Origin: Candidatus Nomurabacteria bacterium
Lineage (GTDB): Bacteria; Patescibacteriota; Minisyncoccia; Phycocordibacterales; UBA9973
NCBI GenBank assembly: GCA_016199805.1
Contig: JACQGC010000004.1
Location: forward strand, 106,908 to 170,907
Length of the DNA: 64,000 nucleotides
Reading direction: 5' to 3'
Shown: positions 22,211 to 48,893 of the stretch, piece by piece
Layout of the letters: every line of letters begins with the position of its first letter
Position numbering within the stretch: position 1 is the stretch's first letter
Notes under the pieces: generated by a model
What the model saw: the letters and a program-made list of their open reading frames with translations, nothing else
Databases searched by the model: none
What the model was told of the DNA's origin: nothing
Made by a program: the position numbers and the translations under genes

Positions 22211-22227
22211 AGTATAGCAATTTTTTG

Positions 22228-22298
22228 TGCGGGATGGGAGAATCGAACTCCCAACCTCAGTTTGGAAAACTGACGTTTTACCATTAAACTAATCCCGC
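22228..22298 (-). tRNA. tRNA-Gly (anticodon TCC)
   Basis: Reverse complement GCGGGATTAGTTTAATGGTAAAACGTCAGTTTTCCAAACTGAGGTTGGGAGTTCGATTCTCCCATCCCGCA folds into a cloverleaf with a 7-bp acceptor stem, anticodon loop TTTCCAA and T-loop TTCGATT. Confidence 0.75.
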
Positions 22299-22324
22299 AA
22301 AACAAAACTAATTCAAAAAACTTG

Positions 22325-22395
22325 TCGGGCTGCTGGGAGTCGAACCCAGCCTAAATGCTCCCAAAGCACTTGTACAACCGATATACTACAGCCCG
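22325..22395 (-). tRNA. tRNA-Pro (anticodon TGG most likely; alternative register GGG)
   Basis: Reverse complement CGGGCTGTAGTATATCGGTTGTACAAGTGCTTTGGGAGCATTTAGGCTGGGTTCGACTCCCAGCAGCCCGA: C1-G72 acceptor typical of tRNA-Pro, anticodon loop TTTGGGA with G37, T-loop TTCGACT. Confidence 0.6.
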
Positions 22396-22425
22396 CTGCC
22401 TCAAATTCAACGATGATTTAATATA

Positions 22426-22854
22426 TCATAAAATTATATCGCTGACTACTTTTACTCTTGCCTTTCTTTCTTTTTGGCATAAATAAATGACCAACAAATC
22501 CACTTGCCATTCTTTTTCTTCTAAATTTCTATGGGACAAAAGGTAGGTTTGGATTGTCCGTGACAGGCGTTTTAGTTTCCATGGGTGCATATTGTCTTCG
22601 GGCCGGGGTTCGTATCTGTCGTCGGAACTACTATATGATTTTGGTGTAAATGTATCTAAAGTTTCTCGTGAAACGCTTTTTACCTCGATAAAATATAGCT
22701 TCCCTTCTTTTTCGGCAACAATATCAATTTCACCCCATTTTTTAGTGTAGTTCCTATCTAATATTAGAAATCCATGTTTCACGAGGAACTTTGCAGCTAT
22801 ATTTTCGCCAAGTTCTCCTATCTTTTGCTTTTCTGATGTAAATACCTTAGGCAT
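22426..22854 (-). CDS. YraN/UPF0102-family predicted endonuclease
   Basis: GELGENIAAKFLVKHGFLILDRNY...EIDIVAEKEGKLYFIEVKS matches the UPF0102 signature. Confidence 0.65.
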   Translation of the reverse strand: MPKVFTSEKQKIGELGENIAAKFLVKHGFLILDRNYTKKWGEIDIVAEKEGKLYFIEVKSVSRETLDTFTPKSYSSSDDRYEPRPEDNMHPWKLKRLSRTIQTYLLSHRNLEEKEWQVDLLVIYLCQKERKARVKVVSDIIL

Positions 22855-22934
22855 ATAAATAGCAATGTTTCACGATTAACCGGCCTCAAGTTTCACGCCT
22901 GCCCGCCTCTGGCGGGAATAACATACTAATTTAA

Positions 22935-22948
22935 GTTTCACGTGAAAC
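22935..22948. promoter_or_regulatory. Perfect 14-bp palindrome GTTTCACGTGAAAC, one of about 8 GTTTCACG-type motifs clustered at 22660-24140
   Basis: Other copies at about 22667, 22775, 22866, 22891, 23888 and 24105/24130 (the last two in coding sequence). Confidence 0.3.
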
Positions 22949-23135
22949 AAAACCGTAATTTATCGTGTCTTTTATCAAAATAACCTTATTTTACAACGTA
23001 TATTAAACAAAAATCACCCTGAAAGACATCGCAAAACTATGTCCTTTATAAACATTACTAACATAGTTATCCCCATTTTCAACAAAATCCTTTAACGACA
23101 AGCACTTTATAAAGGACAGGACAGAATCATTCGTG

Positions 23136-23206
23136 TGCGGCCACCGGGAATCGGACCCGAATCTGATCCTTGGCAAGGACCTGTTCTACCATTAAACCAT
23201 GACCGC
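23136..23206 (-). tRNA. tRNA-Gly (anticodon GCC)
   Basis: Reverse complement GCGGTCATGGTTTAATGGTAGAACAGGTCCTTGCCAAGGATCAGATTCGGGTCCGATTCCCGGTGGCCGCA; anticodon loop TTGCCAA. Confidence 0.75.
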
Positions 23207-23298
23207 TTTTTTGATTTCAAAAGCAGATTCATTATAGTATTTTATTAAAAGTAATGCAATTGTAAACTTCGAATATATCTTGTGTTCCGAAGTTAATC

Positions 23299-23751
23299 GT
23301 GCTAGAATATAGGTCAATGAAGAAATGCACAAAGTGCGGAAAAGAAAAAAAGGAAAGCGAATTTAATTTTAAAATCAAAGTTTTGGGATTGCGCCATAAT
23401 CAATGCAATGAATGCACTAGGTTATTTGTAAAAAATCATTATAATAAGAATAAAGAGTATTATTTAATAAAGACGCATAAGCGTAATAGCAAATTAAGAC
23501 TAGAGGTGTTAAATTACCAGCGGCAATATTTACAGGAAAACCCTTGCGTAGACTGCGGTGAATCGGATATTACCGTTCTCGAATTTGACCATAAGGGTAA
23601 AATTCCAAAATTTAAGGCAGTATCTTCTTTAATGCGGTCTCGTTATTCACTGATAAGAATAAAAGAAGAAATTAATAAGTGTGATGTTAGGTGCGCAAAT
23701 TGCCATAGACGAAAAACAGCAAAAGATTTCAAATGGTTAAAAAGTAATTGA
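23299..23751 (+). CDS. HNH endonuclease-family protein with multiple Zn-ribbon CxxC motifs
   Basis: 150 aa; CTKCGK, CNECT, CVDCGESDITVLEFDHKGK...N...CANCHRRK (HNH D-H-N-CxxCH pattern); lies between two tRNA genes. Confidence 0.6.
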   Translation: MLEYRSMKKCTKCGKEKKESEFNFKIKVLGLRHNQCNECTRLFVKNHYNKNKEYYLIKTHKRNSKLRLEVLNYQRQYLQENPCVDCGESDITVLEFDHKGKIPKFKAVSSLMRSRYSLIRIKEEINKCDVRCANCHRRKTAKDFKWLKSN

Positions 23752-23756
23752 ATAAC

Positions 23757-23828
23757 GCGCTTGTAGCTCAACGGATAGAGTACTCGTCTTCGGAACGAGT
23801 GATGTGGGTTCGATTCCTGCCAGGCGCA
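23757..23828 (+). tRNA. tRNA-Arg (anticodon TCG)
   Basis: GCGCTTGTAGCTCAACGGATAGAGTACTCGTCTTCGGAACGAGTGATGTGGGTTCGATTCCTGCCAGGCGCA; anticodon loop CTTCGGA, T-loop TTCGATT. Confidence 0.75.
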
Positions 23829-23838
23829 CAAAAACTAG

Positions 23839-29169: not shown

Positions 29170-29961
29170 ATGGAAATGGAAAATGGTAATTTGGATTTGC
29201 AAAAAAGTTTGGAATTTATCGGCTTTAGTGAAAAGGAAGTTTTGGTCTATTTGGCACTGCTTGAACTCGGCAAAGGGACAGTCACCCAAATTTCCCGCAA
29301 AGCCGGAATCAACCGCCCGACGGGGTACCATATTTTGGCTTCGCTTGCAGTGAAGGAACTTGTCAAAGCTTCCGGCAAGGAACCAAAGCAAGAATATGTA
29401 GCAGAGTCGCCAGACCAGATTGAAAAACTACTTGTTAAGAAAATTGAAAACGACCAGGCATTTATAAAAGAAGCGAAAAAAATAATTCCGGAATTAAAAT
29501 CCATGCACAATGTCGCCGACCGGCCGAAAGTTTCTTTTTATGAGGGCAGGGAAGGTTTGGAAAAAGTTTACGAAGATACTTTGACCTCGCACGAGCCGAT
29601 ACGCGCTTATGCGACATATGATGATATGCAAGTTGCCTTGCCTGGGTATTTTCCGGATTATTTTCACCGTCGGGCAAAGAAAGGAATACCAATAAGAGCT
29701 ATTTTCCCATTCACAAAAGCCGGCATAGAATTGAGCAAGGATGATATAGCGCAAAAAAGAGAAATAGCTATGATTCCGGCTGATAAATATTATTTTTCTC
29801 CTGAGATAAATATTTACGATAATAAAATTATGATTGCATCTTGGAAAGAAAAACTTGGTATAGTCATCGAGTCTCACGAAATAGCCGATGCTATGAAAAA
29901 AGTTTTTGAGCTCTCGTGGGCAGAGGCAAAGAGACTAGATGCAGAACTCAAAAAGAGCTAA
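29170..29961 (+). CDS. TrmB-family winged-helix transcriptional regulator
   Basis: N-terminal LKSLEFIGFSEKEVLVYLALLELGKGTVTQISRKAGINRPTGYHIL matches the TrmB HTH; about 260 aa, typical size. Confidence 0.65.
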   Translation: MEMENGNLDLQKSLEFIGFSEKEVLVYLALLELGKGTVTQISRKAGINRPTGYHILASLAVKELVKASGKEPKQEYVAESPDQIEKLLVKKIENDQAFIKEAKKIIPELKSMHNVADRPKVSFYEGREGLEKVYEDTLTSHEPIRAYATYDDMQVALPGYFPDYFHRRAKKGIPIRAIFPFTKAGIELSKDDIAQKREIAMIPADKYYFSPEINIYDNKIMIASWKEKLGIVIESHEIADAMKKVFELSWAEAKRLDAELKKS

Positions 29962-37337: not shown

Positions 37338-38231
37338 ATGACAAAAGAAAGTGAAAATTCAAACGGGGCAGGTAAAAATCTCGAGCACAGCGCAATCGTG
37401 GAAACTTACAGCGGAGACATGGCCGAGGTCCTTGAGAGCGACACAGAAGGGCTAATCAAAAAAATAATTCACGGCGAAGAGGAACATAGCAAGGAACAAA
37501 AAGAAATGTCTCCCGAGTCGAAGAAAAACAGGCTTTTCATGATTATCGGTATAGTGTTGATTGCCATAGCTTTGATTATTTTATCTTTTTTCTTATTTAG
37601 GAAAAATGCAAGTACTGTTCCCGTGGCGCAGCAGTTCATTCCAATTGTTTTTAACGACCAAATAACTTATCTCGAAATTTCCGGACTCAAAAAAGACCAG
37701 ATAGCCCAAGCCGTGCTGAACGACATCGATAATACAAAGGTAAAAGTGGGAGGACTGGAGGGTATTTATCCGACCGAAAATAAAAAAATAATCGGACTGA
37801 GAAGATTTATCTCTCTGACAGAGAGCGGCTTTGCTCCGGGAGATAACCCGCTTTTCATCAACGACAATTTCTTGATGGGAGATGTGAATAGTCCGGCCGG
37901 ACCCGCCTCTGAATTGGCGGGCAAGGATTTTTTCATGCTGATAAAAGTGCGGCAGACAGCGGATGTCTTTGCCCCGATGCGCGCGTGGGAAAAGAATCTT
38001 TTTGTCGACTTGCGCGGTTTTTTGAGTATAAATACCGGCAGCGATACAAGCTACCTGCTCTCGAAAAATTTTGAAGACGGAATTATAGAAAACAAAAACG
38101 CTCGAATACTTTATGACCAAAACAAGCAAATAGTTTTGATGTACATTTTTGCCAATGATAATTCGGTAATCATCACTGGCTCGGAAGCCGCAGCGCACGA
38201 GGTATTGCTTCGCTTGGCTTCGGGGAAGTAA
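37338..38231 (+). CDS. Membrane-anchored hypothetical protein
   Basis: 297 aa; acidic N-terminus, one TM (LFMIIGIVLIAIALIILSFFLF), extracytoplasmic domain. Confidence 0.5.
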   Translation: MTKESENSNGAGKNLEHSAIVETYSGDMAEVLESDTEGLIKKIIHGEEEHSKEQKEMSPESKKNRLFMIIGIVLIAIALIILSFFLFRKNASTVPVAQQFIPIVFNDQITYLEISGLKKDQIAQAVLNDIDNTKVKVGGLEGIYPTENKKIIGLRRFISLTESGFAPGDNPLFINDNFLMGDVNSPAGPASELAGKDFFMLIKVRQTADVFAPMRAWEKNLFVDLRGFLSINTGSDTSYLLSKNFEDGIIENKNARILYDQNKQIVLMYIFANDNSVIITGSEAAAHEVLLRLASGK

Positions 38232-38251
38232 CCCAAAAGACCGTCTTTTGG

Positions 38252-39850
38252 CTATTCTATAGCCGGTAATTCTAGATAAAATTGAGAACCTTTGTCGGCG
38301 CCTTCGGATTCCGCCCAGACACGTCCTTTGTGGGCTTCTATTATGAATTTCACGGAATAGAGACCATAGCCGGTGCTGTCCACATTTACCTTAACCGAGT
38401 TTTTACCTCTGCCACCTTCGGTAAACAACCCTTTTTTGTCTTCTTCGGTAATGCCTACTCCTGTGTCTTTAACTGAAAGTAAAATTTTGTCAGCATTCTT
38501 TTCCAAGCCAACTGTTATTTTTCCCTCCCGTGTATATTTTATGGAGTTTTCAATCAAATTATTTACGGCTTCTTTGAGCCAGAAAGCATCACCCAAAACC
38601 GAGTAAGCATTTTCTTTTATTTTCATCGTAATTTCCAAACCTTTTGCTTTTGCTGAAACATTTTTTTCCTCGACAGTTTTCTGCACGATTTCTTTAAAGT
38701 CAGTTTTTTGCATATCGTATTTTACGATGCCTTTTTGCAGATTGTCCGCGTTTAAAACCAAATCCACGGTCTCGATACCCATATTGTCGGATTCCAGTCC
38801 CTGCTCGGCTCTCTTTTTTACTTCGTCATTTATTTCACCGAAAGTTCCATCCAAAATTCCGGCAAAAATATATTTGGAACGGGTAAAAGAGCCTTTGACT
38901 TTGTGGGTGACCAAGTGCACTAAGCTCTCTCTTTGCTTGATGGATTCTTCCAGGCTGGTGTTGAGCTTTGCCAGTTCTTCTTTTTGTTCAACTTCTAAGA
39001 TAACACTTCTGATTAAATTTATGCCAAATATGAGCACTAATAGGAAAACACTGCTTCTAAAAATAATCAGGACAAGAGTATTTGAAAATATTATTTCCAG
39101 AAATAAAACGATTGATAGAAGAAAAACCAGCGTTGAGGTAGAAACTACTTTTATACTGAAAAGACGATGATGTAGGATTGCATAAGTGGTGAAAATGACG
39201 AAGGGGAAAGTGAATAATGCACCCAAAGGAAGGTATCTTGGATTTTCCAGAATAGCTGGAAATATAAAGTTAAAGGTTATAATTAACCCGAACATAATAG
39301 CTGTTCCGAAAAGTATTTTAACGTAGGCTCCTGATTGTGCCTTGTCCGCACGGTGAAGATTTCTAATAAATATAAATAAAGCCGAAATTACCAAAGCAAC
39401 ACTGACCACTCCAAAAAGAGGGATAGCTGGCCCGTTTGATATTTTTATTATACTTCCTGTCGCCGACATTTCTTTTATTTTGGAAAGAACCAAAGGTGAA
39501 GCTGATATACCTGCCGTAAGCAGCACAAACGGCACCAAAAGATATTTGTAGATTTTGGAAAATATTACTGTTGTATTTGGGAATACGTAAAAAAATTGAA
39601 AAATAGAAAAAGCTTGAAGTACCGCCAAAAATAAAACCAATCTTAGTAGCGCAAAAGCTATGTTTGGGTTCATGAGCTTATATCCAAAATAGTTTGCCAA
39701 CCCCCATACTCCAGTAACTATTGAGAATAAAAGGAATGTTTTATTAGTTATGCTTTTCTTATCAGTAAAGAACACCGTAAACCCAAGTATAAAGGTTCCC
39801 GCAATTGCCACGGCAACCGACAGAATATCCAAATTTTCTATTACATTCAT
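38252..39850 (-). CDS. Sensor histidine kinase with polytopic N-terminal sensor domain (no cognate response regulator nearby)
   Basis: At least 8 TM; HATPase_c motifs NLIENSIKYT, DTGVGI, GYGLYSVKFIIEAHKGRVW. Confidence 0.7.
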   Translation of the reverse strand: MNVIENLDILSVAVAIAGTFILGFTVFFTDKKSITNKTFLLFSIVTGVWGLANYFGYKLMNPNIAFALLRLVLFLAVLQAFSIFQFFYVFPNTTVIFSKIYKYLLVPFVLLTAGISASPLVLSKIKEMSATGSIIKISNGPAIPLFGVVSVALVISALFIFIRNLHRADKAQSGAYVKILFGTAIMFGLIITFNFIFPAILENPRYLPLGALFTFPFVIFTTYAILHHRLFSIKVVSTSTLVFLLSIVLFLEIIFSNTLVLIIFRSSVFLLVLIFGINLIRSVILEVEQKEELAKLNTSLEESIKQRESLVHLVTHKVKGSFTRSKYIFAGILDGTFGEINDEVKKRAEQGLESDNMGIETVDLVLNADNLQKGIVKYDMQKTDFKEIVQKTVEEKNVSAKAKGLEITMKIKENAYSVLGDAFWLKEAVNNLIENSIKYTREGKITVGLEKNADKILLSVKDTGVGITEEDKKGLFTEGGRGKNSVKVNVDSTGYGLYSVKFIIEAHKGRVWAESEGADKGSQFYLELPAIE

Positions 39851-39887
39851 ATGTTGTTTTTATTATATATTAAAATACATTCATTTC

Positions 39888-40943
39888 CTATTCTATAACT
39901 GGTTCCTTCCTACTGCTGCGAGCTGACGGATTTTTTGCGTAGCCAACGCGGAACATCAGAAGAGGTACCTCGCTTGAGGATAGATTGAACGCGGAAAATA
40001 TGTCTTGGTATGATTTTAATGCAATTTTTTTGTGTTTCTGGCTTAGTATCTGGTCGGTCAAACTGTTTTGTAGTTTAAAGCCCAAAAAAAGAATTGCGGC
40101 TACCGGCTGAAAAGCAAGCCCCAGTGACGTTGTTTTTAGCCAGATTTCCTGCAGTTTCATTCCAAGTTTAACAAAATTTTCCGGGGATATTTTTTTTAAA
40201 GTTAATAATCCCATTACAGAACTACTCGAATATAACACCGCATCTTGTTTCGCAATAAAATAAGGCAGATGAATTTTTACTGCCAGTCGCATCAATATTT
40301 TATTACTGGCTAACTTAAAAAGAAGTCGTTGCACAGGATTAAATTCCATTGTTTTTATATAAAGACCGTGTTTTTCTTTCCTTTCCTGTTTTTCGGACCA
40401 CATCACATCCTTGAAAAGGTATTCGTGAAGTAATTTATTTTCTAAAATAATTATTTCTGCTGAACTCCCCGCTGTTCCAGCCAGATTTTTATTTTCCGTA
40501 TCCGTTATAAAATGAACGGAAACATCGTCAAACGCACCTGCCTCTTCAAAGAGTATATTTTCTTTTCCAGAAAGTTGTTTTTGCTCATAGGGTCTTCTAT
40601 TTGTCGCCCGTTTCGCGATAAATTCAAACAGAGGATCAATCTGTATATCTAAACTGTTTTCAAAATTAATTTCTGCCACAAGATTTAAATCGCCCGGTTC
40701 CGGGAATAATTTTATTTTTGTCACTAATCCTAGTTTTGGGGATGCGATTTCTATATTTTTTAGCAGTGCGCCATGTGCAATCAAGGAACCACCCTGCATG
40801 AAATTTAAATACGGGTTATCTTTGTCCGGTAAATTATAAATTCTAAGCGTGGTGTTTGATAAAACAAACCGCCATGGTTGGGAGTTGTCACCCGATGGGG
40901 CCATCACACTATATGAAAGTATTTCTTTTATTTTTTTATCCAT
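39888..40943 (-). CDS. Nitroreductase-superfamily FMN oxidoreductase, double-domain (Acg/SagB-like)
   Basis: APSGDNSQPWRF and IAKRATNRRPY (RRSxR-like FMN-binding) motifs; 351 aa, longer than single-domain nitroreductases. Confidence 0.6.
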   Translation of the reverse strand: MDKKIKEILSYSVMAPSGDNSQPWRFVLSNTTLRIYNLPDKDNPYLNFMQGGSLIAHGALLKNIEIASPKLGLVTKIKLFPEPGDLNLVAEINFENSLDIQIDPLFEFIAKRATNRRPYEQKQLSGKENILFEEAGAFDDVSVHFITDTENKNLAGTAGSSAEIIILENKLLHEYLFKDVMWSEKQERKEKHGLYIKTMEFNPVQRLLFKLASNKILMRLAVKIHLPYFIAKQDAVLYSSSSVMGLLTLKKISPENFVKLGMKLQEIWLKTTSLGLAFQPVAAILFLGFKLQNSLTDQILSQKHKKIALKSYQDIFSAFNLSSSEVPLLMFRVGYAKNPSARSSRKEPVIE

Positions 40944-42445
40944 TTTTGCTTTATTCCTGGCTTAAAGTATTCTTGGCTTCCGTTTTTCCAAAGCGTCACG
41001 GAAACGCGCGCCCTATCATTGAAATGACTTATTGTCTCCTTGTATTCTGAATGAGTTTTTAGCAGCTGATTATGGATAAGTTCCGTAACTTCATTTAAAA
41101 GATGTGCGGACGGGCTGACATTTTTTTTAAGTTCAACGTGGACAATAAGTTTCGGGTCTTGTTCCCCGGAAAAACTTGATTCAAGTACGAATTTTCCGGT
41201 AACTTTCTTTTGGATGTCCTTTCCTAATAATATTTTCCTTATAGGACCTGGATATACCTGAAAAGCATAATAGCTCACAGAAAAATCGCTTCTCTCAAAC
41301 ACATAAACAAACGGCAGTTCCCAAACACTACCCTGTATTTTATGTTTTTTGGCTTCTATCTGAAGATCAATGCCAAATTCTTTGAATAAATAGACCATAT
41401 CCCGGAACCTTATGACACTTCCTCTGTCCTCCAGGTCATATCTGATTAAGGGAATTGCGCTTTCGCTGGTGCAGTAAATATTATTATCAATAGATTCGAA
41501 ATAAAACAACTCTGGCAGATATTGTGTCAGGGTTGGTATTTTTATGATATTTCCGAATATTTTTTTATACAAAACCTCATTTTTTTCGGCCAATTTTTTT
41601 ATCAAAATACAGATAGGTGTTTCGTAAGACATAGTTCCGAGGTCTACTGTGCCATAATGGTTGAGCGTATCCAAAAAAATATTCTTACTGCCAACAATAT
41701 CACCGACATAATCTCGGAAAGATTCAGGGAAAGCTTCTGCAGAAAATACGAACTTAATGTTATATTTTTTCCAGTTGATACCCTCATGAAGTCCCGCATC
41801 CAAAATATCTTTGGCAAATGGGCCATATGCCCCGATGATTATTTGGTCGTAATTTTTTCCCATTTTTCCCACTGTTTTTATAACCAAAGAAGTATCAATT
41901 CCGGCCGTAATTATGCTTAGCGGATAGTTTGCCTCACGAGCAATTCGGGTTATCACTTCATAGGTAAAAATACCACCAATCCATGGGCCCATCGGAAAAG
42001 CATCAATATATAAAGTTTTTTTCTTGTGTACTTGAAAATTATTTCTTAAATAAATTTCAGCGTAGAGCTGGTATTGTCTATCCTGTGTTTCAGTTCTGGG
42101 GAAATAAAACGGTTCCCCTGTCGAACCTGAAGTAGTGGCAAAAACCCTGGGTATCTCTGTCAATTGGTTTTTAGTAAAAAGTTTTTCAAAAGGATAAGAC
42201 CTCAAATAGCTGTTTTTACCCGGAGGCGGTAAATCTTTAAATTCGCTCACTGTTTTAACAAGAGGTATTTTACCGATTTGTTTTTTTAAAAAATCTTTAT
42301 AAGCCGGAACCTGTTTGGCTTCCTTAAAAAGTTTCAAAAGATTTTTTTCGCCACGTTTAATCCAAAAAGACTCCTTTTTGGTTCCGAGTAGCTTTTCCAA
42401 TTCAAGAGTTTTTTTGTGAACGGAATACCTCATATGTTTATTCAA
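40928..42445 (-). CDS. ANL-superfamily adenylate-forming enzyme, PaaK/coenzyme-F390-synthetase-like
   Basis: 505 aa; ATTSGSTGEPFYFP (TSGSTG P-loop of PaaK/F390 ligases). Confidence 0.6.
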   Translation of the reverse strand: MNKHMRYSVHKKTLELEKLLGTKKESFWIKRGEKNLLKLFKEAKQVPAYKDFLKKQIGKIPLVKTVSEFKDLPPPGKNSYLRSYPFEKLFTKNQLTEIPRVFATTSGSTGEPFYFPRTETQDRQYQLYAEIYLRNNFQVHKKKTLYIDAFPMGPWIGGIFTYEVITRIAREANYPLSIITAGIDTSLVIKTVGKMGKNYDQIIIGAYGPFAKDILDAGLHEGINWKKYNIKFVFSAEAFPESFRDYVGDIVGSKNIFLDTLNHYGTVDLGTMSYETPICILIKKLAEKNEVLYKKIFGNIIKIPTLTQYLPELFYFESIDNNIYCTSESAIPLIRYDLEDRGSVIRFRDMVYLFKEFGIDLQIEAKKHKIQGSVWELPFVYVFERSDFSVSYYAFQVYPGPIRKILLGKDIQKKVTGKFVLESSFSGEQDPKLIVHVELKKNVSPSAHLLNEVTELIHNQLLKTHSEYKETISHFNDRARVSVTLWKNGSQEYFKPGIKQKWIKK

Positions 42446-43503
42446 AAATTATTAAATTTTTTCTCAGCGATTTCATTGGCTATAATGTTTGTAGCTTTTT
42501 TATTTTGGTCGCTTCCTATGAAAATTTCATTCAAAATATCCTTAATTTTCATTACCTTGGCGCTGACAGTGTCTTTGTTGTAAATTTTATTACTATATTC
42601 ATCAAAAACACTAATAAGCCCTCCCGCATTTGCAATATAATCAGGCGCATATAAAATATGCTTCTCGAAAAGAACCGTACCGAGAGATTCTTTTTCCAGC
42701 TGGTTGTTGGCTCCACCCGCGACAATCTTGCATCTCAAATCCTGTATAGTTTTTTCATTAATTACTCCTCCCAAAGCGCAAGGACAAAATACATCCACTT
42801 CTAGCTTGTGAATTTCCTTAGGGTCGACGATTTTAACATCTGGAAATTTTTCTTTAATCATCTTTATTTTTTCCGGAATAATATCGGAAACATAGATGAT
42901 GCGACAACCTGAATCCGAGAGGAGTTTTATCAATCCGGCGCCGATATTCCCGACTCCTTGAATTGCAAAACTTCTTTTTGAAACATCTTTCGTGCTAAAT
43001 ACTTTTTGCAGAGATACTTGGATAGCGTTGTAGATGCCAAGAGTGGTAAATTCCACTGAATTATCGTTAAACCCCACAATATATGGAGTTTCCTCTTTCA
43101 TAATGGCCAAATCCCTCTGGCATAAACCAACGTCAGTACCTGTAATAAATTTTCCTTTGAGTAAGTCTACATTTTTCGCATATTCTCTTAAAAGTTCCTC
43201 TCGATTTGGAGAGGTCGGGTTTGCAATAATTACGCCCTTCCCGCCGCCACAATCTAGTCCGGCCAGCGCGGCTTTATACGACATCATTCGAGATAAACGT
43301 AAGGAGTCCCGAAGTCCCTCTATACCATTTTTATATGCCCACATTCTAGTTGCTCCAAAGGAGGGGACAGTTGGATTTTTCCTGTGAATGGAGATGTACC
43401 CCTTGAAGCCAATGTCTTTATTTTCTAAAAGAAAAACCCCATTGTGATTTTCAAATTCCGGCAGGGCTCTGATTTCGGGATTATTTGTTATGTCTGTTAT
43501 CAT
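42442..43503 (-). CDS. Glu/Leu/Phe/Val-family amino-acid dehydrogenase
   Basis: 353 aa; KAALAGLDCGGGKGVI catalytic glycine-rich motif; NAD Rossmann segment GVGNIGAGL. Confidence 0.75.
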   Translation of the reverse strand: MITDITNNPEIRALPEFENHNGVFLLENKDIGFKGYISIHRKNPTVPSFGATRMWAYKNGIEGLRDSLRLSRMMSYKAALAGLDCGGGKGVIIANPTSPNREELLREYAKNVDLLKGKFITGTDVGLCQRDLAIMKEETPYIVGFNDNSVEFTTLGIYNAIQVSLQKVFSTKDVSKRSFAIQGVGNIGAGLIKLLSDSGCRIIYVSDIIPEKIKMIKEKFPDVKIVDPKEIHKLEVDVFCPCALGGVINEKTIQDLRCKIVAGGANNQLEKESLGTVLFEKHILYAPDYIANAGGLISVFDEYSNKIYNKDTVSAKVMKIKDILNEIFIGSDQNKKATNIIANEIAEKKFNNF

Positions 43504-43506
43504 AAT

Positions 43507-44586
43507 TTATTCGTTGTGTGTGCCATATTGAATTCCGAGCGGGCTAATGTGTCCACGGACGTCGATTCGCTTGTCATAGCCGAGGATAATTTGCTTGATG
43601 GCGTATGTTGCCATTACTCCTGCCAGGATGGCAGCAGACCCAAGCTGTGGCCAGGATACCAATTCTTTCTTGATAACTCTAGATACTGATTTTATCATTC
43701 TTTTGTCCACTTTATTAATTCCTCCTACAATATCGGAAATAATTAACTCGGCAACTTTCTCTCTCGCAATACCGGGAGCCATAAAAGATTCAAAATGAGC
43801 CAACTCTTTCCCGAATATTTTTTTATGAGCTAAATCATATCGTTCAATATGTAAAACTATACTCTCGCCGTTATCGGTAACCATGACTACAGGCACTTTG
43901 TATTTTTGGGCGAGAACGCGTATGTCAATTTTTACAGCCATATTGTCGACTTCATCAACAATGAGATCCAGTTTTTTATGCCTTAAAAGATTTTCAATGT
44001 TTTTTTTATTGACTCCGTCGGACAAAACAGTGATTTTCGCGAAAGGATTATCTTCGTATATATGTCTAGCGGTGATGGCGCACTTACTTAAGCCGACCTG
44101 GTGAACACCAGCGATGATTCGGTTTAAATTTGTAGTATCCAGGGAGTCAAAATCGGAAATCGTAATCTCGTTCGAAATGCCAGCCTGCGTCAGCACCAGA
44201 GCAATATTGCTTCCGACACTCATTCCGAAAACCGCAATTTTAGCTTTTCGTAACTTGGTTTGTTCTCCCTCGGTGATCAGGTCTCTGTTTCGGTTGGTCT
44301 TTAATTCCAAATAATCTTTCTTCTGTACTGTTTTTACTAGAGAAAAATTCCATGGATAAAACACGTAAACATATTTTTTCCCTATTTTCTTGGAAAAATC
44401 TGCGAATTCTCGCGTTTGGTATGCTTTTTCTTTTTCCGGTCCAGCATATTCCGGATTTTTGATTATGAAGAGTTCCTTTACTTGGAACGAAAAAGCATCA
44501 ACAAAATTAATTGATTTATTTTTCATCAATTTTTTTGTCTCTATTTCGCTCAATATTACTGGCTTATATTCTTGTTTTCGTGTCAT
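43507..44586 (-). CDS. ThiF/MoeB/E1-like adenylyltransferase-family protein
   Basis: KIAVFGMSVGSNIALVLTQAGI nucleotide-binding segment, DFDSLDTTNLNRI motif. The track ORF extends to 44622, but the upstream 12 codons are AT-rich promoter-like sequence, so start set at Met-13. Confidence 0.6.
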   Translation of the reverse strand: MTRKQEYKPVILSEIETKKLMKNKSINFVDAFSFQVKELFIIKNPEYAGPEKEKAYQTREFADFSKKIGKKYVYVFYPWNFSLVKTVQKKDYLELKTNRNRDLITEGEQTKLRKAKIAVFGMSVGSNIALVLTQAGISNEITISDFDSLDTTNLNRIIAGVHQVGLSKCAITARHIYEDNPFAKITVLSDGVNKKNIENLLRHKKLDLIVDEVDNMAVKIDIRVLAQKYKVPVVMVTDNGESIVLHIERYDLAHKKIFGKELAHFESFMAPGIAREKVAELIISDIVGGINKVDKRMIKSVSRVIKKELVSWPQLGSAAILAGVMATYAIKQIILGYDKRIDVRGHISPLGIQYGTHNE

Positions 44587-44661
44587 TTCCCAAATGAAAG
44601 ATATGTGTATATTATAGCACATTAAATAAATGGAAAATAATCTAAAAAAAGCTATAAAAAT

Positions 44662-44787
44662 TTACTTTTTGATTTTTTTATTTAATCTCTTTGCCTCTTC
44701 AAGTGCCATATCAAAAATACTTTTCATAACATCTGACATTTCTTTAATTTCAATAATTACGGCTATGCCACCTTTTTCAGTGGACAT
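44662..44787 (-). CDS. Unlisted 42-aa ORF directly upstream of the ThiF-like operon (MSTEKGGIAVIIEIKEMSDVMKSIFDMALEEAKRLNKKIKK)
   Basis: Hand-translated; ATG at 44787-44785, TAA at 44664-44662; below the ORF-track length cutoff. Confidence 0.25.
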   Translation of the reverse strand: MSTEKGGIAVIIEIKEMSDVMKSIFDMALEEAKRLNKKIKK

Positions 44788-44816
44788 ATACGCAATCGCC
44801 AAAAAAATAGGATATA

Positions 44817-45758
44817 ATGTGTATTATGAGTATACAAAATATGTTTTCTGAGAAAAAGCTTGTGATTCTTGTAGTCGTCGTTGCAGTTTTGGTTTTTGGG
44901 TATGTTGGATTAAACCAGTATCGCTCTAATAAAGCAGAACAAGCAAGACTCGAACCTTTATCTACTAGAGGTTTACCTCCACCGGCTGCAGATGTTGCCA
45001 CAGAATTATTTAAAGTAAAACCAATTTTAGAATTAAAAATACAAGACTCAGATACGAGCTCAACAAGCACAACGTCATCTCAACAATGGAAACTCACAGG
45101 TATAACAAATAAACAAATAAAACGAGTTACATTGGAATCTCATGATGGTTCTACTCAATCAACTATTCACCTAGAATTTAATACTGAAGGCACAAAATTA
45201 ATATATGAAACAACTAAAGCAAATATTGGGAAGAAAATGGGGATTTTTGTTAATGGAAAACTTTTGAGTGCTCCTAGAATAGGGGGAGTAATTAATGAGG
45301 GTCAGGTAATAATTAGTGGCAATTTAAGTGTAGATGAAGCAAACAGTATAGCTAGTCAAATTAATAATACTATTCCAATAGCCAATAGGCCAATACTTAA
45401 GCTAGTACCAGTTGATGATGTTACTAAACGAGATAATATTCGTATTGAGGATGTCCAACAAATAAATAAAGCGATTAAATTATACTATAATGATAAAAAT
45501 CCTTATTACCCTAAGAACTTAAAAGATTTAGTACCCAATTATATTTCAAAATTACCAGTAGCTCCAACACCAGCAGACGGTGATTGTAGTTTTTATGATA
45601 ATTCCTACGAGTATACCTTGGTAAGTAGCGAGAGTTACGTAATAAGTTTTTGCTTAGGAAATGAAACCAGTGGTTACTCAGCAGGATACCACACCATGAA
45701 TCCAAATGGAATTATTAGTTCTGATGGTGCACGTTATTTGCCAGGGTTTTCTTACTAG
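44817..45758 (+). CDS. Membrane-anchored/secreted hypothetical protein with Ser/Thr-rich linker
   Basis: 313 aa; N-terminal TM LVILVVVVAVLVFGYVGL; divergent from the ThiF-like operon. Confidence 0.55.
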   Translation: MCIMSIQNMFSEKKLVILVVVVAVLVFGYVGLNQYRSNKAEQARLEPLSTRGLPPPAADVATELFKVKPILELKIQDSDTSSTSTTSSQQWKLTGITNKQIKRVTLESHDGSTQSTIHLEFNTEGTKLIYETTKANIGKKMGIFVNGKLLSAPRIGGVINEGQVIISGNLSVDEANSIASQINNTIPIANRPILKLVPVDDVTKRDNIRIEDVQQINKAIKLYYNDKNPYYPKNLKDLVPNYISKLPVAPTPADGDCSFYDNSYEYTLVSSESYVISFCLGNETSGYSAGYHTMNPNGIISSDGARYLPGFSY

Positions 45759-45892
45759 ACTTCTTTTAAACATGACATATTATTTGAAGTGCAAATAACC
45801 ACGGTGGTCTTCAATGAAGTGAACGAAATGCTTCATGCAGGATACCACCTAAGGAAATATCATTTGTGAAACCTGCGACAATGCAACATTCG

Positions 45893-46375
45893 TCACAGGT
45901 TTTCTTTTAGAATTTTTTTTGCCAAAGCTTTGGTGTTGGAAAGCATATCCAAATTATCTATTTCACTAAGCGTAACCCATTTATATTCAGTGTGTTCGGC
46001 AGGATTTAAAATTATGTCTTTATTTTCAGGGAGAATGTTGAAAACATAGCCACGGCATCTTTTTTTATCAGAAACAGCATTGAAATCGAAAATTTCTGGC
46101 TTCGAGAGAAATTCTTTTATAGATAAATTTGTTTCTTCGAATAATTCTCTCCGCCCCCCAGAGAAAATATCCTCATTTTCATCGAGTTTACCTCCGGGCA
46201 GTTCATATAATCCCGGGAAATGGTCGGTTTTCGCTCTCTTCAACATTAACAGTGAATCACCTCGCACCATAGCTAGTCTTACTATTTTTCTACTTATTCC
46301 GTCTTTTTCTGCCGTGTCTGATAATTTCTTATTAATTATTTTATAATCTTTTTTTAAAATTGTTTTTTTAGGCAT
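45893..46375 (-). CDS. NUDIX hydrolase
   Basis: Nudix box GGKLDENEDIFSGGRRELFEETNL. Confidence 0.75.
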   Translation of the reverse strand: MPKKTILKKDYKIINKKLSDTAEKDGISRKIVRLAMVRGDSLLMLKRAKTDHFPGLYELPGGKLDENEDIFSGGRRELFEETNLSIKEFLSKPEIFDFNAVSDKKRCRGYVFNILPENKDIILNPAEHTEYKWVTLSEIDNLDMLSNTKALAKKILKENL

Positions 46376-47042
46376 GTGACAGTGTTCTCATATGTGCAAT
46401 ATATTCCCTGCAGATTGGTAATGATTTTTCCCAATATTCCAACGCCTTGTCAACTTCAAGCGGTATGCCTCCCCAGATAGCCTTATTTTCAAGTGAATTA
46501 GAACTAATACCGCATTGTTCCAATATATCTATCACTTCTTGTTTAGATTTTTCAATAATTGGAGCGTGTAACTTTATACCATACTCTTTCAAAAAATTTT
46601 TCATAAGTTCAAAAAAATCGTTTCGTTGTTCTATGTATCTGTCTTGCTTACCCTGATACCCAGAGTATCCGCACGCAATGTCATGAATATCGTTTTCCAA
46701 ACAATATAAAATAGCCCCGGCATATATGCCGAAGGCAATGGCGATAGGGTATACCACATGCATACTGTTTGTCTTTTCTATGGCTAGTTTTCTGAGTAAA
46801 TACCCATTTCCGGTAATAATACGTTCGGGGTCAATACTTTCAGGAAAAGCCTTCAAAAGCTCCATTTGTCTGATGTCTGGCGCTGAATCTCCATGCGGGC
46901 CAACCAGTTCGGGCAATCCTCCTTGATAGGTAAACAATTTTATAAAATATCCGGCGCGTATCATCTCAATGACTACAGACGAAGAATCCCTTCCTCCTGA
47001 GAACAACACAAGCACTTTTTTAGAAGTATTCACAATGTACAT
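46368..47042 (-). CDS. PP-loop ATP pyrophosphatase-family protein (QueC-like)
   Basis: VLVLFSGGRDSS PP-loop (SGGxDS); 224 aa; 8-nt overlap with the NUDIX gene. Confidence 0.5.
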   Translation of the reverse strand: MYIVNTSKKVLVLFSGGRDSSSVVIEMIRAGYFIKLFTYQGGLPELVGPHGDSAPDIRQMELLKAFPESIDPERIITGNGYLLRKLAIEKTNSMHVVYPIAIAFGIYAGAILYCLENDIHDIACGYSGYQGKQDRYIEQRNDFFELMKNFLKEYGIKLHAPIIEKSKQEVIDILEQCGISSNSLENKAIWGGIPLEVDKALEYWEKSLPICREYIAHMRTLSHA

Positions 47043-47279
47043 ATTTTAACACAAAAACCAATTTTTACTTGCCATGTAAACAAGGCATGTTATGATTGGC
47101 TTATGCTTAACAAGAAAAAAATAAAAGAAAAATTGGAAAAAGAAAGAGATCTTCTACTCGAAGAGATGAAAGGTATGGGCAAGCTGAATCCCGAGACAGG
47201 AGACTGGGAAGCAATTCCAGACTCAAACCTGCAAGAAACATAAGGAAGAAAATATTTAAAAAAATAATACTATCAAAAT

Positions 47280-48893
47280 ATGTCTTTCTCACGAGTATAT
47301 TCAGCTCAGACGCATCTACTAAAGGGAAAGATTGTTACTATTGAAGTTGATATTACTAAAAAAACTTTACATGCTTTTACTATTGTCGGATTGCCGGACA
47401 AAGCTGTGGACGAATCCAAAGACCGCATGAGCTCGGCCCTAAAGAATTCCGGCTTTAAGTCTCCCAAAAATCAAAATCAAAAAATAGTCATTTCACTTTC
47501 TCCGGCGGATTTAAAAAAAGAGGGGCCATACTTTGACTTGGCTATCGCATTGGCATATCTGCTCTCCGGTGAGGAAATAGATTTCGACCCGAAAGGAAAA
47601 ATTTTCTTGGGAGAACTTGCTTTAAACGGAGAATTACAGCCGGTTAAAGGAGTGCTGCCGCTCGCCGAGCAAGCCATGAAGCTGGGTTACAAAGAAATTT
47701 TTGTGCCGGAAGCAAATGCCCCCGAGGCGGCTTTGGTAAAAGGCATTACTGTTTACGGAGCGCGCACCTTAAAAGAAGTTATCGAACATCTCTCGAGTGG
47801 CGCCGACCCCGAAGGAAAGAGTACTTCCTACGGGGCAGGCAAAAAAGCAAAATTAGTTGGGAAAAAACAAATAAGAATTATTCCACAAAAACCAACTCAA
47901 ATAATTCACAAAGATACAGTGCATGATGTAGACTTTTCCGATATTAAGGGGCAAGAAAGTGCAAAGCGCGGGCTCGAAATAGCCGCTGCTGGTGGGCACA
48001 ATATAGCTATGTCTGGCCCGCCCGGCACCGGCAAAACCATGCTGGCGCGGGTGTTTTCACACTTGCTACCCGAGCTCGGCAATGACGACATTTTGGAAAT
48101 TACGGGCATACACTCCGTCGTGGGACTACTCGAAGATGCTCTCGTCACCGAGCCGCCTTTTCGCGCTCCGCACCATACCGCGAGCTATGTATCCATGATT
48201 GGTGGCGGCACAAACCCCAAACCCGGGGAAGTTACTTTGGCCCACAAAGGGGTGCTTTTCTTGGACGAATTTCCGGAATTTGAAAAGAGGGTATTGGAGG
48301 CTTTGCGCCAACCCCTCGAAGATAACATTGTTTCCATTTCCCGCGCCAGAGGTTCCGCTATTTTCCCTTCAAATTTTATTTTAGTCGCGGCAATGAATCC
48401 CTGCCCGTGCGGGAACAAGGGCAACAAAGACAAAATTTGCATTTGCAAACCGAGCGACTTGGACCGCTACGCGCGGCGAATCTCGGGACCCATCATAGAC
48501 CGCATAGACCTGTGGGTCGCCGTCGGCAATGTGGATTATGAAAAACTTAGTGACGAAGTGGTACGCAGTGAAAGGACGCACACCATAAAAGAACGGGTGA
48601 AAAAAGCGCGACTGATGCAGGAGAAAAGATTTGCGAAATCCCAAAACAATTCGAAGAGAAGAATAAAAACCAACAGTGAGATGAATGTGAAAGAGCTCAG
48701 TGTGTTTGTGCCACTTAGCCCCGAAGTGAAAGAACTTTTAAACGACAGTGCCGAGAGGTTAGCTTTGTCGGCGAGAGCGTATCATAGAGTAATAAAAATA
48801 GCCCGCACAATAGCCGACCTAGAAAATTCCCCCAATGTGGAAGCGAATCATATTTTGGAAGCTATTCAGTACCGCCCGAAGGTCACTAACTAA
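47280..48893 (+). CDS. comM: Mg-chelatase-like AAA+ ATPase YifB/ComM
   Basis: 537 aa; Lon-protease-like N-terminal domain, Walker A GPPGTGKTML, C-terminal ChlI-like domain. Confidence 0.85.
   Translation: MSFSRVYSAQTHLLKGKIVTIEVDITKKTLHAFTIVGLPDKAVDESKDRMSSALKNSGFKSPKNQNQKIVISLSPADLKKEGPYFDLAIALAYLLSGEEIDFDPKGKIFLGELALNGELQPVKGVLPLAEQAMKLGYKEIFVPEANAPEAALVKGITVYGARTLKEVIEHLSSGADPEGKSTSYGAGKKAKLVGKKQIRIIPQKPTQIIHKDTVHDVDFSDIKGQESAKRGLEIAAAGGHNIAMSGPPGTGKTMLARVFSHLLPELGNDDILEITGIHSVVGLLEDALVTEPPFRAPHHTASYVSMIGGGTNPKPGEVTLAHKGVLFLDEFPEFEKRVLEALRQPLEDNIVSISRARGSAIFPSNFILVAAMNPCPCGNKGNKDKICICKPSDLDRYARRISGPIIDRIDLWVAVGNVDYEKLSDEVVRSERTHTIKERVKKARLMQEKRFAKSQNNSKRRIKTNSEMNVKELSVFVPLSPEVKELLNDSAERLALSARAYHRVIKIARTIADLENSPNVEANHILEAIQYRPKVTN

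Follow-up and report, generated by a model that had tools for sequence, protein, structure and literature searches.

We analyzed a five-gene operon in a 64,000-nucleotide stretch of DNA, here called the window, from a Candidatus Nomurabacteria bacterium (GenBank assembly GCA_016199805.1, contig JACQGC010000004.1, positions 106,908 to 170,907 of the forward strand). The organism is a member of the Patescibacteria, also known as the Candidate Phyla Radiation (CPR), bacteria with tiny genomes and very little biosynthesis; the ligase and ThiF proteins described below are 100% identical to its NCBI proteins. The five genes are intact, lie head-to-tail on the minus strand between positions 38252 and 44622, and encode a ThiF-like enzyme (ThiF), an ELFV dehydrogenase (DH), a PaaK-fold ligase (LIG in gene orders), a nitroreductase-fold oxidase (NTR, a candidate flavin-dependent oxidase, FDO) and a histidine kinase (HK). 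The features of the locus, with the evidence for each in brackets, are as follows.

44611..44619, minus strand: extended -10 element TGcTATAAT, a putative promoter element (read by eye from the sequence)
43507..44586, minus strand: ThiF-like ATP-dependent adenylating enzyme/cyclase of the TrzS/TyzB/OxzB type, 359 aa (Pfam, NCBIfam, BLASTP, AlphaFold2 (AF2) model)
42442..43503, minus strand: ELFV-family amino-acid dehydrogenase, read as the aromatic (Trp/Phe-DH-like) type, 353 aa (Pfam, NCBIfam, PDB sequences, pocket residues)
40928..42445, minus strand: PaaK-fold adenylate-forming ligase, 505 aa from a TTG start or 501 aa from the ATG at 42433 (AF2 model and Foldseek)
39888..40943, minus strand: double-domain nitroreductase-superfamily FDO of the Acg/TrzS-C-terminal type, 351 aa (NCBIfam, PDB sequence, BLASTP)
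38252..39850, minus strand: polytopic sensor histidine kinase with about 7-8 transmembrane segments, 532 aa, last gene of the operon and co-transcribed (Pfam, hydrophobic segments, hidden Markov model (HMM) of the cluster kinases)
38233..38251, no strand assigned: hairpin at the convergent junction past the kinase gene, a possible operon terminator (terminator-like match CCAAAAGACCGTCTTTTGG)
44662..44787, minus strand: 42-codon open reading frame (ORF), read as the 3' relic of a TrmB-family regulator gene and outside the pathway (matches to TrmB C-terminal ends)

The ligase and NTR genes overlap by 16 nt, the sole certain overlap in the operon, while gaps of 3 nt and 37 nt separate ThiF from DH and NTR from the kinase. 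DH and the ligase overlap by 4 nt if the ligase begins at TTG, and are 8 nt apart if it begins at the ATG used by NCBI (501 aa). A preliminary description of this region, prepared from the sequence alone, had given the four enzyme genes overlaps of 4-16 bp; this stands for the ligase/NTR junction, fails for ThiF/DH, and depends on the TTG start for DH/ligase.

The longest ORF for ThiF spans 43507-44622. Because its ATG at 44622 falls within the perfect extended -10 element (44619-44611), and because the NCBI protein also begins at M13 (44586; 359 aa), 25 nt downstream of that element, the true start is almost certainly M13. The element was missed by a simple promoter scan, as it has no match to a -35 hexamer, and the scan itself was uninformative, with 22 matches versus 20.8 in shuffled sequence. 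The hairpin beyond the kinase gene, a match scored on the plus strand only, may terminate the minus-strand operon.

The gene set across Patescibacteria

A scan of one genome per GTDB species returned 236 stretches with relatives of the ligase. Counts of loci given here refer to the best 80 of these, and counts out of 50 refer to those in which the flank on each side of the ligase was 5 kb or longer. The labels of the 80 loci were Patescibacteria or generic, and included Paceibacteria, Saccharimonadia, Gottesman-, Magasanik-, Doudna-, Roizman-, Woyke-, Kaiser- and Adlerbacteria. The only actinobacterial locus that we examined, from Rhodococcus (L086), had no partner gene of the CPR set annotated nearby.

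The preliminary description had called the genes a tightly coupled operon, and the comparison bears this out. Among the 50 well-flanked loci, the ligase was accompanied by ThiF in all 50, by DH or an aminotransferase in 49, by the kinase in 48, by NTR in 39, by a stand-alone receiver protein in 27 and by an alpha/beta-hydrolase in 11. At least four gene orders were present among the 80 loci: ThiF-DH-LIG-NTR-HK, as in the window, DH-LIG-ThiF-NTR-HK, NTR-DH-LIG-ThiF-HK and LIG-ThiF-NTR-HK. Recurrence of the set in 80 species-level genomes, and in several orders, puts its linkage far beyond chance and means that it was selected. Natural fusions tie the enzymes into one pathway. The ligase was found joined to ThiF (ligase~ThiF in P0057, and ThiF~ligase), to DH (DH~ligase) and to both (DH~ligase~ThiF, 1242 aa), and six loci had ThiF~NTR, five had NTR~hydrolase (L026, L051, L067, L070 and L084) and one had ThiF~hydrolase (L028). 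The hydrolase (Abhydrolase_1/6; for example L003:10582-11499) is an accessory gene, present in 19 of the 80 loci, or roughly one fifth, often fused to NTR, and absent from the window. It may open an oxazolone ring or work as an esterase.

The kinase proved to be a core, co-transcribed member of the set, linked as strongly as the enzymes. It scored 75 bits for HATPase_c, has about 7-8 hydrophobic segments within residues 1-290, and reached 529 bits with an HMM of the kinases at other loci, which carry HisKA_7TM, HisKA and HATPase_c. In 43 of the 50 well-flanked loci it was the next gene downstream in the same orientation, after a median gap of about 4 nt.

Two further observations concern the composition of the 80 loci. 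In the Saccharimonadia (L035, L041, L042, L051, L054, L066, L067, L079-L081 and others), a block of FolD, Asp/Glu racemase, Mur ligase and receiver genes is found repeatedly upstream of clusters of the aminotransferase version; lineage synteny is the probable reason, and the racemase and Mur-type ligase could be tied to amino-acid chemistry. Loci L010, L012, L013, L031, L034, L044, L045, L049, L052, L055, L056 and L072 are titled 'uncultured Gammaproteobacteria' and have the gene content of the Patescibacteria loci; L049 is a complete chromosome of 0.94 Mb. Their titles are probably mislabels from automated submissions of metagenome-assembled genomes (MAGs).

The enzymes of the operon

ThiF scored 81 bits with the Pfam ThiF model and 223 bits (E 5e-66) with the NCBIfam model NF005901, 'Rv1355c family', over profile positions 26-325, the N-terminal half. 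NTR matched the C-terminal half of the same profile (159 bits, positions 376-713), as well as the C-terminal half of NCBIfam PRK14851 (186 bits) and the Acg family (124 bits). Because they match opposite halves of the profile, ThiF and NTR correspond to the two halves of a known fusion enzyme. By BLASTP against a Rhodococcus Rv1355c-family protein, ThiF aligned with the ThiF half at 31% identity over 302 aa (E 1e-39), with the motifs YPW, GxSVGS, DFDxLDxxNLNR and DExD in common, and NTR with the FDO half at 21% identity (E 2e-14), with APSGxNSQPW in common. In the window the two genes share one operon with two genes between them, and in most relatives they are adjacent. A fused ThiF~NTR orthologue at locus L031, in the order DH-LIG-(ThiF~NTR)-HK, scored 534 bits against NF005901, above the cut-off of 476, and aligned with actinobacterial Rv1355c-family proteins over 89-95% of its length.

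In ThiF, the nucleotide-site residues D226, R111, G133/S135/G137, D159, N165 and R168 were at least 95% conserved among 71 cluster ThiFs (numbering of the 371-aa ORF; D226 is D214 in the 359-aa protein), and the alignment of the DxxD motif would place D226 at the position of MoeB D130 and TrzS D217. The AF2 model of ThiF had a predicted local distance difference test score (pLDDT) of 90, with AclA, MoeB, ThiF, PaaA and MccB as the nearest solved folds; the best PDB sequence match was TcdA. NTR matched the PDB sequence of Acg (2ymv), and APS..N.QPW and R112 were conserved in 50 cluster NTRs. The motifs quoted in the preliminary description were all present in the translations, namely TSGSTG in the ligase and APSGDNSQPW and RATNRRPY in NTR.

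Public annotations name homologues of ThiF 'molybdopterin/thiamine biosynthesis adenylyltransferase', which would make it a housekeeping MoeB/ThiF activator of a sulfur carrier, with its neighbors coincidental. Its scores are far below all MoeB, ThiF and TcdA cut-offs (71 bits versus 159 for ThiF, 54 versus 266 for MoeB), its sequence has no CxxC zinc motif, and no ThiS/MoaD-like small ORF was found. Synteny and fusions effectively refute this explanation, with ThiF linked to the ligase in every well-flanked locus, and we give it next to no credence. The preliminary description had treated ThiF and the nitroreductase-fold protein as a functional pair and not as housekeeping MoeB, and on this it was right.

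The preliminary description had also drawn an analogy to the azoline- and azole-forming machinery of peptides that are made on ribosomes and modified post-translationally (RiPPs), in which ThiF would be the leader-peptide docking protein, NTR a SagB/McbC-type dehydrogenase and the 42-codon ORF the precursor. An E1-like protein is indeed paired with a nitroreductase-fold protein in clusters for thiazole/oxazole-modified microcins (TOMMs), and the RiPP ThiFs MccB and PaaA are among the structural matches listed above. Against this, YcaO was absent from the surrounding ~8 kb (the genes at 34.3 to 48.9 kb) and from the conserved neighbors, the ocin_ThiF_like, SagB and YcaO models gave no match at E <= 0.01, and ThiF retains its catalytic ATP-site residues. 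Nor was any small ORF of 20-119 aa common to more than 2 of the 80 clusters. The 42-codon ORF, which consists of 41 aa and a stop codon and ends 42 nt upstream of the -10 element, does exist as described. It matches only the last ~39 residues (~232-270) of full-length, ~260-aa TrmB-like proteins in L021, L065 and L014, and L021:5524-6441 is a Pfam TrmB member; an intact TrmB-family paralogue lies within the window at 29170-29961 on the plus strand. In L006-L009, the four closest relatives that share the gene order of the window, the ORF does not occur upstream of ThiF. Judging from these matches, it is a relic of a TrmB gene, neither a new gene nor a precursor peptide. With no YcaO, SagB or docking-ThiF match and no conserved precursor ORF, the RiPP explanation is effectively refuted and scarcely plausible. 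An anti-phage E1/E2 system was also considered and rejected; PADLOC gave only generic ThiF-domain matches to E1-E2 models (<=49 bits), and none for the other genes.

The ligase has no Pfam match and no NCBIfam membership, scored 18 bits against the PaaK model TIGR02155 (cut-off 646), and found no PDB sequence even at E <= 1. Its AF2 model (pLDDT 88.6) was informative: the top Foldseek match was PaaK1 (2y27; E 4e-20, TM-score 0.79-0.82), followed by BT_0428, the amide ligase ClxA and 2-hydroxyisobutyryl-CoA ligase (HCL). The P-loop TSGSTGEP and the C-terminal lysine (K499) were invariant in 33 homologues. The family comprises 793 clusters at 50% identity (E <= 1e-30), extends across the Patescibacteria and has no Pfam model. 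On the strength of the predicted structure, we classify the ligase as a PaaK-type adenylate-forming ligase with the two-domain ANL fold. It resembles PaaK and ClxA in that fold (TM-score ~0.8 to PaaK1), in the conserved P-loop and in the C-terminal lysine, and differs from them in being only ~15% identical, in having ~70 extra residues and in its gene context. Unlike the paa catabolic genes around PaaK of TIGR02155, its neighbors are ThiF, DH or an aminotransferase, NTR and the kinase.

DH matched the Pfam models ELFV_dehydrog and ELFV_dehydrog_N. Its best NCBIfam model was the ScyB tryptophan dehydrogenase, at 292 bits and below the equivalog cut-off of 600, and its best PDB sequences were the tryptophan dehydrogenase (TrpDH) 5b37 and the leucine dehydrogenase (LeuDH) 6acf. 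Because the TrpDH and LeuDH scores are nearly equal overall (244 versus 237 bits), the sequence alone does not settle a Trp, Phe or Tyr specificity, and only the pocket residues favor the aromatic type. The catalytic K77, K89 and D124, equivalents of K68, K80 and D115, were conserved in 39 of 39 cluster dehydrogenases. In the pocket, G122 stood at the LeuDH A113 position in 39 of 39 and L296 at the V291 position in 31 of 39, as in TrpDH 5b37. A Gly/Leu pair at these positions marks aromatic specificity, as known from mutagenesis of phenylalanine dehydrogenase (PheDH) and LeuDH. From the pocket residues and those mutants, we read DH as specific for aromatic amino acids, which agrees with the aromatic substrates of the known oxazolone enzymes. 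DH thus shares with ScyB/NpTrpDH and PheDH the catalytic residues and the aromatic-type pocket signature, and, as in scytonemin biosynthesis, it lies in an operon that looks like one for a secondary metabolite; it differs in falling below the ScyB cut-off and in having no ScyA partner.

DH was present in 41 of the 80 loci and a class-I aminotransferase next to the ligase in 33; the two never occurred together, and six loci, mostly on short contigs, had neither. The aminotransferase version, which came in more than one arrangement, was seen in Saccharimonadia, Paceibacterota and Adlerbacteria. HMMs built from relatives found no aminotransferase in the 64-kb window. The exchange is a non-orthologous displacement, and because the two enzymes never co-occur, the step that is needed must be the interconversion of an amino acid and its 2-oxo acid. 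This agrees with the preliminary description, which had taken ligase and DH as pointing to activation of an amino or keto acid. That description had missed three things: the ThiF and NTR class is a published oxazolone-synthetase module, the kinase is a core member, and DH can be replaced by an aminotransferase.

Deamination followed by a PaaK-fold ligase recalls the indolepyruvate and phenylacetate pathways, and the operon might then be a catabolic or fermentative module for aromatic amino acids, in which DH or the aminotransferase makes arylpyruvate, the ligase is an aryl-acid CoA ligase, ThiF and NTR serve an unconnected purpose, detoxification or redox, and the kinase is a sensor of amino-acid supply. 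The rank of PaaK1 and BT_0428 among the structural matches of the ligase fits this, and the kinase could be a nutrient sensor. There was, however, no 2-oxoacid:ferredoxin oxidoreductase or decarboxylase among the conserved neighbors, and the distance of the ligase from the PaaK model also speaks against it. Catabolism leaves unexplained why the ligase always adjoins ThiF and is at times fused to it. We consider this module improbable.

A candidate oxazolone pathway and its kinase

In the known systems, an acyl-CoA-dependent N-acyltransferase makes N-acyl Tyr, Phe or Trp, a ThiF-like enzyme closes the 5(4H)-oxazolone with ATP, and an FDO desaturates it with O2 (PMC12856293, PMC10404671, bioRxiv 10.1101/2020.06.11.147165). 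For TrzS, TyzB/TyzC and OxzB, cyclization with ATP and desaturation with O2 have been demonstrated by experiment. OxzB is from Pseudoalteromonas rubra (bioRxiv 10.1101/2020.06.11.147165), TyzB and TyzC are from M. tuberculosis (PMC10404671), and TrzS is Rv1355c (PMC12856293). The N-acyl dehydrotyrosines of Planctomycetota and others come from clusters that combine an N-acyl amino-acid synthase (NAS), ThiF and a nitroreductase (PMC12479983). According to a 2025 review, no ThiF-like enzyme other than OxzB is known to have a small molecule as its substrate.

As the set recurs across the phylum, it probably yields, and perhaps senses, a small molecule not described before. On balance, we favor the reading that the operon encodes a CoA-independent, ligase-fed, kinase-linked variant of the oxazolone or N-acyl-dehydro-amino-acid pathway, conserved across Patescibacteria. 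In the pathway that we propose, DH, or the class-I aminotransferase in other lineages, would interconvert an aromatic amino acid and arylpyruvate; DH could supply either the amine, through reductive amination, or the acyl unit, in the form of arylpyruvate. The ligase would then adenylate a carboxylic acid (arylpyruvate, arylacetate or another) and use it to acylate an amino acid at its amino group, giving an N-acyl amino acid; with ATP it would take over the job of the acyl-CoA-dependent N-acyltransferase OxzA/TyzA/TrzA. ThiF would adenylate the free carboxylate of the N-acyl amino acid, upon which the amide oxygen would close the 5(4H)-oxazolone ring. The FDO would remove two hydrogens, from C-alpha and C-beta, to give a conjugated arylidene oxazolone. 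This product may hydrolyze to the N-acyl dehydro-amino acid, and in some relatives the hydrolase may open the ring. Finally, the 7TM kinase, with the stand-alone receiver protein in many relatives, would regulate the pathway or perceive its product.

The proposal combines parts of different standing. The homologies of the enzymes, the relation of ThiF and the FDO to TrzS, the conservation of the operon, the fusions and the alternation of DH with the aminotransferase are observed; what we infer from them is that the ligase forms an amide, together with the acyl donor, the direction in which DH runs, the product and the ligand of the kinase. No N-acyltransferase was found in the window operon, and no such family among the conserved neighbors of the 80 loci. 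The ligase probably forms the amide without CoA in place of that enzyme. The precedent within the PaaK fold is ClxA of closoxazole biosynthesis, in which amides and esters are made without CoA (PMC12519233, PMC9400959). The operon as a whole would in this respect offer a second route into oxazolone chemistry, by an ATP-dependent PaaK-fold ligase as opposed to an acyl-CoA N-acyltransferase. Such a CoA-free entry would suit organisms that have been reported to lack fatty-acid and acyl-CoA metabolism.

The closest known relative is TrzAS (Rv1356c-Rv1355c), which makes tryptazolone in Mycobacterium and Rhodococcus (PMC12856293). Both systems have a ThiF-like ATP cyclase and a nitroreductase-superfamily flavin mononucleotide (FMN) oxidase that are homologous over their full length, both ThiFs have an N-terminal extension and the unusual GxSVGS loop, and an aromatic amino-acid substrate is likely for the operon too. 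In contrast to TrzS, the ThiF and FDO of the operon are separate genes with two others between them, at 21-31% identity; the operon has no TrzA-type acyl-CoA N-acyltransferase and carries instead a PaaK-fold ligase and DH (or aminotransferase), with a 7TM kinase co-transcribed; and its host is a CPR bacterium, not a mycolic-acid actinobacterium. The tyrazolone systems TyzACB (Rv2336-2338c) and OxzAB (Pseudoalteromonas rubra) likewise have ThiF and FDO, separate or fused, in one operon, for cyclodehydration and desaturation of an N-acyl aromatic amino acid, and the open-chain dehydro products of some producers with NAS, ThiF and nitroreductase parallel the hydrolase fusions of the CPR relatives. 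All of these use a GNAT-like NAS with acyl-CoA or acyl carrier protein (ACP) donors, and none has been reported with a PaaK-type ligase, a DH or aminotransferase, or a linked sensor kinase. Literature searches joining oxazolone, ThiF, nitroreductase or PaaK with Patescibacteria, Saccharibacteria or CPR returned nothing relevant, nor did one for HisKA_7TM. The preliminary description could put no pathway name to the gene combination, and we likewise found no mention of the cluster in the searchable literature.

Several findings weigh against an oxazolone pathway of this kind. The window ThiF and NTR are split, and their scores of 223 and 159 bits, each alone and summed (about 383), stay below the NF005901 equivalog cut-off of 476. 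The 21% identity of NTR to the actinobacterial FDO half is a strong divergence, and in the Saccharimonadia loci NTR scores better against the Acg family, whose function is unknown. NTR is missing nearby in 11 of the 50 well-flanked loci; desaturation is hence not universal. Many Patescibacteria live in anoxic habitats, while the known FDOs need O2. The data are compatible with a ligase that gives a CoA thioester rather than an amide. The known oxazolone clusters show no comparable requirement for DH or an aminotransferase, and the split between the two largely tracks lineage; the counts are of genomes, not events, and few events may lie behind them. No response regulator was found in the 64-kb window with HMMs built from relatives.

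The same enzymes could instead make another ring or conjugate. The ligase would join two amino- or keto-acid units, ThiF would close a six-membered ring of the diketopiperazine or morpholinedione type, or a lactam, and the oxidase would desaturate it as cyclodipeptide oxidases do; or the carboxylate activated by ThiF would be transferred to a macromolecule such as tRNA, peptidoglycan or lipid. Two adenylating enzymes with a supplier of amino or keto acids suit several schemes of condensation followed by cyclization, TcdA, the best PDB sequence match of ThiF, cyclizes t6A on tRNA, and the loci lacking the oxidase nearby leave room for such products. ThiF-like enzymes also yield lactams, thiolactones and phosphoramidates (PMC12596934). 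Yet the closest full-length family of both ThiF and NTR is the oxazolone synthetase TrzS, not TcdA or the RiPP ThiFs, there is no conserved peptide or carrier-protein gene, and tRNA-synthetase neighbors occur in few loci and are not conserved. Overall we regard another ring or conjugate as rather unlikely.

Returning to the oxazolone reading, the simplest explanations of the kinase are that it controls the operon or perceives its product. Small-molecule biosynthetic genes are directly linked to a multi-transmembrane sensor kinase in Vibrio CqsA/CqsS too, where an autoinducer synthase stands beside a polytopic histidine-kinase receptor. This likeness is one of analogy only: the enzymes of the operon and the sensor domain of its kinase are not homologous to that pair. 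De Rond et al. suggested oxazolones as possible labile signals, and the discoverers found no phenotype. Tentatively, and as a possibility that we hold with some doubt, the operon could be a self-contained signal synthase-receptor unit, specific to Patescibacteria and widespread in them. Ligase, ThiF and FDO would convert a host-derived aromatic amino acid, CoA-free, into a labile aromatic oxazolone or dehydro-N-acyl amino acid, to be sensed by the co-transcribed 7TM kinase, which would signal to the stand-alone receiver protein. If true, these ultra-small episymbionts would gain their first chemical communication system, and bacterial oxazolones their first assigned biological role.

A multi-enzyme small-molecule pathway kept together with a sensor kinase across many classes of Patescibacteria is likely to matter for how they live, for instance by sensing hosts or signaling between cells. 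Should the oxazolone reading be correct, oxazolone or N-acyl-dehydro-amino-acid chemistry would reach a fourth phylum, beyond Pseudomonadota, Actinomycetota and Planctomycetota, and the cluster offers a testable hypothesis on the purpose of oxazolones.

Surroundings of the operon

The genes flanking the operon are housekeeping genes, for PNPase, a ComM-like ATPase, a NYN-domain protein, a XerC-type recombinase, a LexA-like protein and RNase Y. The G+C content over the operon and its immediate neighbors (38001-48000) was 0.34-0.39 versus 0.42-0.49 in most of the window, which could reflect horizontal acquisition or plain local composition. The divergent neighbor (44817-45758, plus strand) encodes a 313-aa protein with only the SecDF P1-head subdomain (64 bits), not a full SecD or SecF.

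Full-length TrmB-like genes lie beside or within the cluster in L014, where two copies stand between ligase and NTR, and in L021 and L065, and a TrmB-type regulator may once have been linked to the operon in the lineage of the window. On the minus strand at 45893-47042, the genes for a NUDIX hydrolase (160 aa) and a 224-aa protein that weakly resembles QueC (Pfam QueC 30 bits) overlap. The two match PADLOC models, PDC-S07 (52 bits) and a defense-system QueC model, and could be a small nucleotide-modifying or defense-type pair as opposed to queuosine biosynthesis. Farther away, four ordinary tRNA genes (Gly-TCC, Pro-TGG, Gly-GCC and Arg-TCG) lie at 22227-23829.

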